Shown here: positions 21,001 to 27,000 of the stretch, one piece after another | Layout of the letters: every line of letters starts with the position of its first letter | How positions within the stretch are numbered: position 1 is the stretch's first letter | Made by a program: the position numbers | Assembly: GCF_000026545.1 (NCBI RefSeq) | Contig: NC_011601.1 | From: Escherichia coli O127:H6 str. E2348/69 | GTDB taxonomy: Bacteria > Pseudomonadota > Gammaproteobacteria > Enterobacterales > Enterobacteriaceae | Direction: 5' to 3' (one strand) | Length of the DNA stretch: 64,000 nucleotides

Positions 21001-24000
21001 TTGATGGAAAACGGATATCTACTAAAAAAAGAAATAATAAAACTACTTTCACTTTGATTTATTTGCTTTTTACTTTGGAAGTGATAATATGGACTGGATG
21101 GTGGCATCCATTCAGTCCATATTTCACAAAAACTACAGTGCTCTATCCTTGAAATACTAATCATTTCGCCTGCATATTCTTTTCAAAAAAATAATGAAAT
21201 ATCGTCCCCAGAACAGAACACATTCTGGGGAGAAAAAGAAAACAGCATAAAATAATACTTAAACTGTCACACCTGATAAAGAGTTTAATGTAGTATTCTC
21301 TGGAGGGTTCACACCTTCTGTAGACTGTACGCGACGTAACAAAGAAGAGAGCCCTCTTTCAGTTAAAAAGCCTTCCAGTGCAGTGCGAGGAAACCAGGTT
21401 GAAGACAGTGGCGTAATGTGTCTCTCATTTAATTTACTTTCCAGGGCCTTCGTAACGCCTCCATACAAAAAGCTAAATATCCTTGAGAAACATCCACTTT
21501 CCTGAGTTATCTTATTTACTTTGTACACATAATTATCTTTATCTTTAATGAAGCGGACAGCATAATCTTTTCCACGAAAATTGATAATTGAATAGTCATC
21601 AATGCCTGCAAAAACCCGGTGGTGACGCTGCTGCATGCGTGCTTTAAGTTGCAGTTCATCTACTATATCATCATTCGATATATGAAGAGTTCGGGTCAAC
21701 TTATTCCATGACGCATGGCTTGTCAAAGAAGTAGTGAATGTTATACCTGATAATGATGACGACATCATACACCTCCCTATATAACGCATTCCTGATTAAT
21801 CACATACTACGCTAATAGTAAAATAAAAATCTTCGTTGATTTTTATAATACTCCCGTATGCGATTGTGGTATTATTCCGTACTAACTGGCACCCACCAAA
21901 AAGATGATATCCCGTTGAATCGATAATGTCATCTTTTTGGACATTACGCAACATATGTATATCAATATGCACTGTGCCAATCACACAATAAATGCGATTC
22001 ATCACAGTCTCGCTGCTGATAGTACATAACGGATCTGCAGCCAGAACATCCGTGACAGATAAATTATTATCGCTCAGCTTTACGGTTGCCAAAGGGTTAT
22101 TAATAACAATCCAGCACCTTCTCTCTTGACTATCATCAACATGATAGAGTCTCAGACTATCACCAACTCTCAACTCTGTAACTGGATAATCAGTCCACCC
22201 AGGTACGATATAGCCATCAAAAAAAAGAGCATTAGAATGTGGAACAAATTGCCAATTATCATTAATCAGATGTTGTAAACTTTGTACCGTTGTTTCGAGT
22301 ATAATTACATTAAGTCTGTTTTCTCCATTATTATTTTCTATTACCGGATAAACATCTTTATTTAGCATCGTAAATTGAACATCATCAACTGACACATCAC
22401 CTTCCGGTAAGGCAGTCTGCATTACCCATAAGATCATGAGTTTTATCATATCTTCCGGTATCAGCCGGCTTTCACTATACGGGAATAACTCTTGGCACCA
22501 CTGAATGAACTGTTCTTCTGATATCCAGAAACGCCCCTCATAGCCCGAGTATGTCAACGTGAAACGAATACCATGACCGCTGACCTCACGAAAATATGCA
22601 TGGCAAGCATGACCTTCGGACGTAATATAGAGGCGACCGGTTCCGATAACTGGCAACAACGGCAAATAAAAATCGTTAATTTTCATATTCAATTGTGAAC
22701 TCAATGGCTTCATCAGGAAAGATTTCTTTTAACTTATCGAAAACATAGTCTTTTTTATGATATAAAAAAACATGATTTCTATTATTTTGGCTTATTTTAA
22801 TAGACAGATAAATGATTCCGTTACTACATTTAATTGTTAAAACAACTCCTCGTAATCTTCCACAAAGAATACTAAACGAGTGCTCCCCTTCTTCAAAGTA
22901 GCGTCGTCTTCGGCCCGAGGAGTAAAACAATCTCTTCCATAAAGAAGCCATTCGTATGAACAACGTATCAGGCGATCTTTTTTTTATATGATAAAAAATA
23001 TCATTAAAACTTTCTTCTCCTTGCGGCCAATCATCTGATGGCCGAAAAGAAACAGGCTCTATCAAATTTCTTTTTAGAGAAACTCTAGTCAAAGTAATGT
23101 TCCTTTATGGCAAAAGATAATTTTTCTACTGATTTATTAACATGTTGCAGATTCTCTTTTGTTCGTTTTTGTGAATCTAGCAATGAACGCTTTTCCTTCG
23201 AAAGTGAAGATTTTTTCTCATACAATCGCTGCTTTTGCTCATCAAATGCATTGTTTTTAATCTGATATTTATACAACGACACTTTATCCAAATTCACCAG
23301 CGATGCACAATACGCCTGCTTAGAGGCAATCGACTCTTTAATGGATTGCTCGCAGTCATCGAGTTTACCATCCACCTCTTTTATCTGAGAGTTAATCTTA
23401 GCCATTGATTCTCTCAATCGGTTCGCTCTGCTTTTACGAATAGATAAAATTCTGTCCAACATACTCAGGCAACCACTTTGAATAGGCTTTCAATCGTTTT
23501 TTCGTAACTACTGATATCTTTGGTGCTTTGTTGTATAAAGTTCTGAATTAATTTCCTATTTTTTATTGCCTTATCTGCTTCAGGATCTTGCCCCATCGTG
23601 TACTCACCAATACGAATAAGCAGCTCAACATTTTTATAAGTTGCAATAAGCTTTTTGCATTCTGCCGCCGCACGCAAATGCTCCGATGTAACAACGTTAT
23701 GCATAACACGACTGGCACTTAAACCAATATCAATTGCAGGGAAATGGTTTTCCTCTGCAAGTTCTCGGGTAAGTACGATGTGCCCATCAAGAATAGAGCG
23801 GACTTCATCGCCAATAGGATCATTAACATTATCGCTTTCTAACAACACCGTATAAATCGCGGTTATTGAACCTTTTGGCGCAGGCCCCGCTCGCTCTAAT
23901 AATTTGGGTAACGAAGAAAAAACACTCGGAGGGAATCCCCCCCTTACATCAGGCTCTCCCGATGCAAGCCCAACATCACGCGCGGCTCGGGCATAACGAG

Positions 24001-27000
24001 TTACAGAATCCATCATTAATAATACATTTTTACCTTGATCGCGGAAGTACTCTGCAATAGTCGTCGCCGTAAATGCGGCTTTCATCCTTTCCAGCGCGGG
24101 GCGGTCTGACGTTGTGACGACCAGCACACATTTAGAAAGCGTGGATTGAGGTAAAAGCGCGAGGAATTCATTTACTTCGCGACCACGTTCGCCGATAAGA
24201 GCAAGGACAATAATATCTGCGGATGCGCCATTACAAATCATCCCCAAAAGCGTACTTTTACCAACGCCTGAACCAGCAAAAATACCGATACGCTGCCCAA
24301 TACCGCAAGTTAGTAGCCCATCAATTGCCCTGACGCCAAGTATAAATGGCTGATCAATAACCTGCCTTAATAAAGGATCTGGTGGTTCAGCATACAAGCT
24401 GCGTTCAAACGGAAGATAGGGGGCAACAATATTACTCTCCATTGGTCTGCCTATGCCATCAATAAGCCGCCCAAGTAGTGCGTCTCCAACACGAATCTTG
24501 AACTCATCCCCCTGATAACTTAACCACTGACCACAGTACATGCCGGAAACATGCTCAAAAGGCAACAAGAAAACCTCATCTTCATCAATAGCGATCACCT
24601 CGGCTAAACGTTGACTGGGTTCTATCTTGTAAAAGGCGCCAATACGCGCTTTTGGTAAACGCGCCTTAATAATCGTCCCGCCGATATTGATAATCTTGCC
24701 TTCATATCTGGTAGACGAATTTAATGATAATGCCGGCACAGTGCTATTGAGCACTTTCTGAATACGTGGGTATTTTTCCAATACAGAATCATGCTCTGAA
24801 ATCATTTACCGTTCCTAATACTTTAAGTTCGATATTATTCCCAACCTCCTGAAAAGAGAGCACGGGGACTGACGGGAACGAACCTTCAATCATTTTCTTC
24901 ACATAGCGCCTGATATCTAAAGCGGTCAGAATGACGCCGTTCCCCGTTGGATTCATGATATTTTTTAAGAAGCCAATTATCTGCTCAGTTCGCTCCGGTG
25001 AGATATTCAGATACGAACCTGATGACGTTTGTCTGATCGACTCTCGTAGCTCATTTTCAATATCAGAGCCAATAAGCCAAACGTTCAGAAGTGTACCGCT
25101 AACGCTATAGCGACCTAAAATATGCCGACGCAGGGCGATACGAACGTATTCGCACAAGATAACCACATCCTTTTCTTTTGTTGACCAAAAAATAAGCGTC
25201 TCAAAGATAGTTCTCAGATCTCTAATTGAGACATTTTCCTCTACGAGACGTTGTAGAATGTCAACAATTTTGCTCAAACCAAGCTGGCGCTGCAGCTCTT
25301 TCACAAGCTCGTTATATTTTCTCTCCATGATGTCCATCAAATAACGCGTTTCTTGTACGCCGATGAACTCTTTGGCATTAGACAATACAAGTTTCTTTAG
25401 CAAAAACGTTATCTTATCATTTGTTGTTGCATAAACATCCATACCTGTAAGGTGAGCGAGTTGTTGATTAGTCTTATTCGTCTTATATACGATAGAGTTA
25501 GTCGAAAGCTTTTCCTGGACAAATTCGAATGATATCTCTGCATGCCCAGCCTCAAAATAGACAGTATCATCTATAAGAGTATCTTTGTATATTGACTCTT
25601 GATAGAGCAAAAATTCTATTGCGCTATCATTATTTTTAACCGGATTAACAATAATCTTAGGCAATGGAATTCCACTTTCCTCAAAGAAATTCCAACGCAT
25701 GACCTCAATTTGCTGTGTAATGTCTGAACTATAAATATTACTACTTAAGTTTAAAATCAATGGCTCAGCGCCCGGTGAGATGTTTTGGCTATTAGACAAA
25801 TCAGCTCCCATAGCATCCTTATTATTGCCAGCTCCAAATGTTCTTTTCTTCTGTAATTTCCAGGCTATCCCCAACAGGCAAACCGCCAGAAATAAGAAGA
25901 CCAATGTAGGAAAGCCCGGAATAATCGCCATTACGAGCATTAGTGCGGCACTGATTAAAAAAGGGCGACTATTAACAGAAACCTGTTGAACAATATCACC
26001 TGCAAGGTTTTCTTCTTTTTCGCTTTCACCGGGCACACGAGTAACAACCACGCCCGCGGTGACAGAAATAATAAGCGCAGGGATCTGGGCAACCAAAGCA
26101 TCACCGACAGACAATACAGAAAACAGGCTAAGTGCCTCACTAAATGGCATGTCAAATTGCCACATACCAATGAGCACGCCACCAAAAAGGTTAACTAAAA
26201 CAATAATGATACCAGCAATAGCGTCCCCTTTTACAAACTTCATCGCCCCGTCCATTGAACCATAAAACTGGCTTTCCTTTTGCACTCGGGAGCGAAGAAC
26301 TTTTGCCTCAAGCGGGTCAATAACGCCTGCGCGCATATCACCATCAATACTCATTTGCTTTCCTGGCATACCATCAAGGGAAAAACGAGCACTCACTTCA
26401 GCAACACGCTCGGCCCCTTTTGTAATAACCATAAATTGAACAATGGTGATAATAGTAAAAATAACCAGGCCAACAACAATATTACCGCCAACAACAAAGT
26501 TACCGAAGGAGTAAATAATGTCACCCGCATCGTGATGCAGCAGAATAAGTCTGGTTGTACTAACACTGAGCGACAGGCGCATCAACGTCGTAATCAACAG
26601 GATTGTGGGGAAAGAAGTTAGTTCAAGAGGATTTTTTATATAGATTGAGAGCATTAATAAAAGTAAAGCTGTCGAAATATTAATCGCGATAATGATATCC
26701 ACCACAACTGTTGGTAGTGGAATAATCATCATCATTACAGCCATAAAGAAGAAGAGAGCCAGAATAAGATCGTGATATGACTCTGCTTTTTTAAATATAT
26801 TTAAGAGTTTATTCATGATGTCATCCTGCGAACGCGCTCAATAATCTGCACATGCTGTTGAAAAGTATTCATTAGAAAAAAAACATCGATATTGGTTAAC
26901 AAACAACTTAAGCACAATTTATTATCGTAGACAAAAATATGTTCAATCACTCCCTGCGTACGCTCAGGAGCAAGGGCACTAAAGAAAGAGAAAAATGCGT

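Follow-up and report, generated by a model that had tools for sequence, protein, structure and literature searches.

Close gene packing and probable junction-specific dependence on upstream translation in the LEE3 operon of Escherichia coli E2348/69

Introduction

In the LEE3 operon of enteropathogenic Escherichia coli (EPEC), neighbouring genes abut or overlap by as much as 38 nucleotides (nt), which raises the question of whether these overlaps couple the translation of one gene to that of the next. We addressed this question in a stretch of 64,000 nt from E. coli O127:H6 str. E2348/69 (GCF_000026545.1, contig NC_011601.1), referred to here as the window, in which LEE3 occupies the minus strand in the order cesL-escV-escN-escO-escP-escQ-espH and is divergent from LEE2; the names given by the Prokaryotic Genome Annotation Pipeline (PGAP) and the list of open reading frames (ORFs) agree on this order. 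The island is flanked by tRNA-Sec (the selC locus), and the operon was identified as LEE3 of the locus of enterocyte effacement (LEE). An initial annotation had read the overlaps as typical of stoichiometrically coupled components of the type III secretion system. Our own reading, to which we give a probability of about 80%, is that LEE3 is a tightly packed polycistron, that this packing was inherited from the Esc/Ssa core cluster, and that the effect of upstream translation is partial and specific to each junction. Both the packing of the LEE3 genes and their partial translation-dependent expression are already published (Sun et al., 2016, PLoS One 11:e0155578; PMC4868261).

Results

Gene junctions of LEE3 and their dependence on upstream translation

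Gene coordinates were obtained from the ORF listing, by direct reading of the minus strand and by extraction of the overlap strings; all features below lie on that strand. The first cistron, cesL (also mpc or orf12; 26813-27166, 117 aa, found both as an ORF and by PGAP), overlaps escV, the gene for the export gate SctV (24789-26816, 675 aa), by 4 nt in an ATGA (26813-26816). The next overlap, of 17 nt (ATGATTTCAGAGCATGA, 24789-24805), joins escV to escN, which encodes the ATPase SctN (23465-24805, 446 aa from ATG 24805) in the +1 frame relative to escV. A spacer of 2 nt (23463-23464) separates the escN stop from escO (orf15 or escA; 23085-23462, 125 aa from ATG 23462), which encodes the stalk protein SctO. 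An overlap of 8 nt (TTGACTAG, 23085-23092) follows between escO and the TTG-initiated escP (orf16; 22676-23092, 138 aa), the gene for the needle-length regulator SctP, and one of 38 nt (22676-22713) between escP and escQ (sepQ; 21796-22713, 305 aa), the gene for the sorting-platform protein SctQ. The last of these shrinks to 11 nt if escQ begins at ATG 22686, so that escP and escQ overlap with either start. Finally, espH (21259-21765, 168 aa, from PGAP), the last cistron, starts 30 nt after the escQ stop. The initial annotation had given the four overlap lengths (4, 17, 8 and 38 nt) and the genes concerned exactly, and the span it assigned to them, 22676-26816, is bounded by the escP stop and the escV start.

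How far each gene depends on translation of its predecessor was determined in the lee3 operon of enterohaemorrhagic E. coli (EHEC) by Sun et al., who removed upstream translation gene by gene (PMC4868261). In their AC constructs a mini-ORF of two vector codons, with CTG after it, took the place of the leading gene's start, and the His-tagged downstream products were detected by Western blot. Dependence on upstream translation was strong from mpc to escV (-4 nt, negative values denoting overlap) and from escV to escN (-17), moderate from escN to escA (= escO; +2), small from escA to escP (-8) and from escP to sepQ (-38), and moderate to strong from sepQ to espH (+30). Furthermore, AC36, an EHEC mutant with a chromosomal mpc ATG-to-CTG change, lost type III secretion and was rescued by downstream genes supplied in trans. 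The intercistronic distances, negative ones included, and the SD positions are charted in Fig. 7 of that study, and its authors found that the effects follow no regularity of SD (Shine-Dalgarno) position or intercistronic distance (PMC4868261). The claim that the overlaps bring about translational coupling therefore stands in part: secretion in AC36 and the levels of EscV and EscN bear out a dependence on upstream translation, but the two overlaps of -8 and -38 show only a small effect, and the non-overlapping +2 and +30 junctions a moderate or larger one. Overlap by itself is a poor predictor of coupling.

The EHEC and EPEC operons have the same gene order and the same four overlaps; the pathotype differs, the junctions do not. 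EPEC E2348/69 and EHEC O157:H7 lee3 are 98.7% identical over the region and do not differ from -30 to +48 at any start. The same four overlaps are annotated by PGAP in EPEC E2348/69, O157:H7 EC4115, O103 RM8385 and a lineage of approximately 90% identity, and in E. albertii the ORF geometry also matches LEE3. Start codons and SDs are invariant across five LEE lineages. In these lineages two substitutions fall inside 24789-24805; both are silent in escV (TTC to TTT, and stop TGA to TAA) and both change EscN (S3L and D6N). Three of the lineages end escV with TGA inside the overlap, and the other two have TAA in its place. The 5.7-kb stretch around LEE3 is 100% identical to the EPEC E2348/69 chromosome; among 5,426 complete E. 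coli genomes, 696 contain a match to it of 90-100% identity, as a single chromosomal copy every time. In the annotation of O103 RM8385, cesL is a frameshifted pseudogene (locus 6595-6947), despite the need for cesL/mpc translation in EHEC, which may reflect faulty assembly or genuine variation.

Junctions in distant relatives

Relatives were found by an EscN scan of one genome per species, and their starts were chosen by homology and SD. Most matches were distant ATPase loci, probably flagellar FliI, that lack LEE3 synteny; the six useful loci came from E. albertii and from five more distant relatives, and neither Salmonella SPI-2 nor Citrobacter rodentium was retrieved. The five relatives, Providencia rettgeri, Winslowiella iniecta, Pseudomonas farris, Rouxiella aceris and Ottowia sp. 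(46-57% identity in SctV/SctN), carry Esc/Ssa (SPI-2-like) clusters with the order cesL-like/sctV/sctN/O/P/Q, as in LEE3. All of their junctions lie within -25 to +3 nt, with lengths unlike those of the LEE: -1 or -4 at cesL-like/sctV (LEE -4), -1 or +1 at sctV/sctN (LEE -17), -4 to -25 at sctN/sctO (LEE +2), +2, +3 or -14 at sctO/sctP (LEE -8), and -14 or -23 at sctP/sctQ, where the genes overlap in all five (LEE -38). Judged from these gene sequences, close apposition is conserved across the Esc/Ssa clusters, and overlap length is not.

Protein alignments bear on the origin of the two long overlaps. EscN has approximately 9 and EscQ approximately 6-7 additional N-terminal residues relative to their homologues, while neither EscV nor EscP is longer at its C-terminus; it follows that the long LEE overlaps stem either from upstream shifts of the downstream starts or from true starts at TTG 24781 and ATG 22686. 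In the former case, the 17- and 38-nt overlaps would be lineage-specific by-products of start shifts in escN and escQ, not devices selected for coupling.

The SctQ homologues also contain a candidate internal start. At the motif M-D-x-F-x-D-W-x-D, four distant SctQ homologues share a conserved internal ATG (codons ~229-232) preceded by a good SD (-5.9 to -6.8 kcal/mol); initiation there would yield a C-terminal product of 91-94 aa, akin to the known internal SctQ-C starts. The segment that holds this ATG is deleted in LEE EscQ (EPEC and E. albertii) and in Ottowia; the nearest ATG in escQ is codon 238 (22000-22002, minus strand), which would give a 68-aa product and whose SD is weak or absent.

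Spacing, RNA structure and initiation

Translational coupling works best at -4 to +3 nt, falls faster with overlap than with spacing, and was absent at -25 nt in one systematic study (PMC12548453); the commonest overlaps in E. coli are -4, -1 and -8 (PMC10666635). If approximately -8 to +6 nt is taken as the spacing for termination-reinitiation, the cesL/escV, escN/escO and escO/escP junctions lie within it and escV/escN, escP/escQ and escQ/espH outside it. We propose that translation of cesL would be needed for escV and that of escV for escN, both strongly, and that translation of escN would help escO to a moderate degree. The -4 and +2 junctions appear compatible with termination-reinitiation, and where silencing mpc or escV had a strong effect, Rho polarity or mRNA decay on the untranslated ORFs probably added to it. 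Despite their overlaps, escP, which has its own SD, and escQ, with its A/U-rich and predicted-open leader, would initiate mostly de novo.

The translation initiation regions (TIRs) were compared by thermodynamic folding predictions. Only the escQ TIR gave a consistent result: whatever the parameter set, it is predicted to be open, its accessibility ranking at the 73rd-96th percentile. Sequestration was not consistent for any LEE3 TIR in these predictions, in which ranks varied with the folding parameters, so coupling by RNA unfolding found no footing in them. RNA accessibility as a determinant of coupling was suggestive in the first parameter set and was rejected over six parameter sets and two strains (Spearman -0.50 to +0.09, p > 0.3). 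Pairing of mpc nt 1-100 with the escV TIR, considered as an explanation for the cis element of Sun et al., was rejected as well: none was predicted, and predicted accessibility fails to track the deletion phenotypes.

Several other elements were sought in LEE3. Promoter-like sites numbered 22 (20.3 ± 4.8 in shuffled sequences) and terminator-like sites 2 (4.9 ± 2.1 in shuffles), both at chance level, so neither internal promoters nor internal terminators were retained. Programmed +1 frameshift fusion of the YopN-TyeA type was dropped after inspection of ATGATTTCAGAGCATGA, TTGACTAG and the 38-mer, in which no P-site re-pairing motif (e.g. UUU-UGG) was present, and an Rfam search of LEE3 gave no credible match.

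Start codons and Shine-Dalgarno sequences

For SD strength, the duplex between the 3' end of 16S rRNA and the 20-22 nt that precede each start was predicted. SDs are present for escV (ATG 26816; AGGA at 26824-26827, -4.1 kcal/mol), escN (ATG 24805; AGGA at 24813-24816, -6.1 kcal/mol), escP (TTG 23092; AAGGA at 23101-23105, -5.6 kcal/mol) and espH (ATG 21765; the strong GGGAGGUG, -13.2 kcal/mol), but not for escO (ATG 23462; weak, -3.0 kcal/mol) or escQ, which has none at ATG 22713 (-0.9 kcal/mol) and a weak one, not counted as an SD, at ATG 22686 (-2.2 kcal/mol). The SD of cesL is weak (-2.1 kcal/mol).

The caution in the initial annotation that some ORF starts are uncertain proved well placed for escO (ATG 23405 or 23462), escN (with an alternative in-frame TTG at 24779-24781), escQ (ATG 22686) and espH (21789). 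For escO, PGAP gives a 106-aa 'hypothetical protein' from the internal ATG 23403-23405 in all four records examined. We took ATG 23462 as the start because the 125-aa form was used in PMC3890302 and in PDB 6NJP and because EscO residues 1-19 can be aligned with the N-terminal residues conserved among SctO homologues; on this alignment the RefSeq model, 19 codons shorter than the form in the literature, looks N-terminally truncated. The longest espH ORF begins at ATG 21789, and the SD UAGGGAGGUG (-13.2 kcal/mol) precedes the PGAP start at ATG 21765, with a further in-frame ATG at 21768; the ORF from 21789 is almost certainly too long. For escN, the SD evidence favours ATG 24805.

The TTG start of escP and its AAGGA are retained in six lineages, the lowest at 78% protein identity, and the primers of the EHEC study place the start at the same TTG (PMC4868261). 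A search for EscP homologues gave matches confined to LEE relatives, at 78% identity or more. Within escP an A8 homopolymer lies at 22978-22985 (minus strand; codons ATA AAA AAA AGA), and the database EscP variants P0006, P0007 and P0008 (84-85 aa) diverge directly past it, which in sequence terms would fit a frameshift by slippage or a sequencing error.

Packing across the LEE

Overlaps were found at 10 of the 29 intra-operon junctions listed for the LEE, and all 10 are in the apparatus operons LEE1-3, with none in LEE4, LEE5 or grlRA, which are effector, translocator and regulator operons. Those beyond LEE3 include escK/escL (-14), escR/escS and escS/escT (-1 each), escT/escU (-8) and sepD/escC (-1), and the two longest of the LEE are both in LEE3. 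Among apparatus-operon junctions, 11 of 19 lie within -8 to +6 nt, compared with 24% of all co-directional gene pairs in E. coli K-12 (PMC10666635; binomial P = 0.0014), a contrast that is overstated since the K-12 baseline also counts between-operon pairs and would be higher if it were limited to pairs within operons. In LEE3 by itself, the figure is 3 of 6 (P = 0.15). The packing of LEE3 thus exceeds chance only moderately and is not LEE3-specific; tight packing of this kind is ordinary for such operons. Elsewhere in the window, espF (~7300-7900; 77163-77774 of the annotated record) is marked by PGAP in E2348/69 as an incomplete pseudogene with a missing C-terminus, and it adjoins a degraded IS3 transposase fragment.

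Discussion

Taken together, the junction geometry, the EHEC data and the relatives lead us to read LEE3 as a closely packed operon in which upstream translation matters at some junctions more than at others. Several points weigh against this reading. Strong dependence at -17 (escV to escN) together with weak dependence at -8 is unlike a simple distance rule. Both escV and escN were well expressed without a translated upstream gene once mpc nt 1-100 had been deleted (PMC4868261), so they do not strictly require reinitiation. In the folding calculations, mpc nt 1-100 showed no predicted long-range pairing with the escV TIR, and the predicted TIR accessibilities did not robustly correlate with the reported dependence. 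Apart from AC36, the experiments were plasmid-borne, with a T5 promoter and a K-12 host (PMC4868261). In addition, a literature search for LEE starts mapped by ribosome profiling or N-terminomics found none. The sole construct of the EHEC study with a shifted stop, mpc G72stop, gave an intermediate EscN level (PMC4868261).

A possible, if rather unlikely, alternative is that the overlaps are neutral compaction and that the dependence is polarity, arising from Rho loading on untranslated RNA, from mRNA decay, or from both. In the mpc deletion series escN mRNA dropped in parallel with EscN protein (S2 Fig of PMC4868261), so these data do not tell polarity or mRNA decay apart from translational coupling. 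Long untranslated stretches destabilise E. coli mRNAs, and the effects were mostly larger for long untranslated ORFs (escV, 2028 nt; escN, 1341 nt; sepQ, 918 nt) than for short ones (escO, 378 nt; escP, 417 nt). A C-rich, G-poor window resembling a Rho loading site was clear only in escV (~nt 139-218), with few elsewhere and none in cesL. However, mpc is only 354 nt long and yet has a strong effect, and its nt 1-100, with 3 C and 21 G, are unlike a Rho loading site; the LEE3 mRNA as a whole is G-rich relative to C (C/G 0.60-0.94). Moreover, tight packing is retained in six divergent lineages, which suggests selection on spacing, and -4 and +2 are spacings shown elsewhere to permit reinitiation.

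It is unlikely that at least one long overlap is an annotation artefact, with the true starts downstream at escN TTG 24781, 7 nt past the escV stop, and escQ ATG 22686. The SctN start of the five distant homologues falls at the position of EPEC EscN residue ~10, 1 nt to either side of the sctV stop, and both substitutions in the 17-nt overlap alter EscN alone. At escQ, ATG 22713 has no SD and the homologues lack the residues that precede M10; the escO start is already in dispute between PGAP and the literature. Set against this, escN ATG 24805 has an ideally spaced AGGA, five lineages show no change in either, and an SD is lacking at TTG 24781; the escP TTG and its SD are retained down to 78% identity; and the escV ATG of the ATGA agrees exactly with the homologous N-terminus, at which EscV and five distant SctV homologues align position by position. 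As for escQ, starting at ATG 22686 would not abolish the overlap with escP, and the sequence MKPLSSQ is similar to the homologue N-termini M-x-(I/L)-P-x-L-S.

That the overlaps lock machine subunits into fixed ratios, as the initial annotation supposed, is very unlikely. The restriction of LEE overlaps to apparatus operons speaks for it. However, an injectisome contains approximately 9 SctV, 6 SctN, 1 SctO and approximately 24 SctQ, with SctP secreted, and products used in such unequal numbers leave stoichiometric coupling unsupported; two of the four LEE3 overlaps barely couple in EHEC, and overlap lengths differ between lineages. Hardly probable at all are dual starts, with escN initiating at ATG 24805 (SD-driven) and at TTG 24781, which is homologous to the start of the relatives and reachable by reinitiation 7 nt past the escV stop, and escQ at ATG 22713 and ATG 22686, giving N-terminal isoforms whose ratio would report upstream translation.

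Our preferred reading, packing inherited from the Esc/Ssa core with partial, junction-specific dependence, has practical consequences. Non-polar clean mutations in LEE3 must respect the overlaps, and an overlap alone should not be taken as coupling, with -8 and -38 as examples of junctions that hardly couple. The significance of the LEE3 overlaps lies mainly in careful annotation, namely of the escO model and of the escN and escQ starts.

LEE3 can be compared with systems in which coupling is known. The ATGA, TGATG and -8 reinitiation pairs of Huber et al. 2019/2023 (PMC6728339, PMC10666635; review PMC12548453) share their spacings with cesL/escV (-4), escN/escO (+2) and escO/escP (-8); unlike these pairs, the -17 and -38 junctions of LEE3 are out of range and its -8 junction is little coupled in EHEC. 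The coat-lysis junctions of phages fr (-38) and MS2 (-50), which are exceptions to the coupling distance rule (PMC12548453), likewise place the downstream start far upstream of the upstream stop, and the spacing in fr is that of escP/escQ; the phage lysis gene depends on upstream termination, whereas EHEC SepQ was only slightly lower without escP translation. In trpE-trpD (-1), galT-galK (+3) and rplK-rplA (+3), as in LEE3, a gene's translation depends on that of its predecessor in the same mRNA, but in those three pairs the effect has been separated from transcription and in LEE3 it has not.

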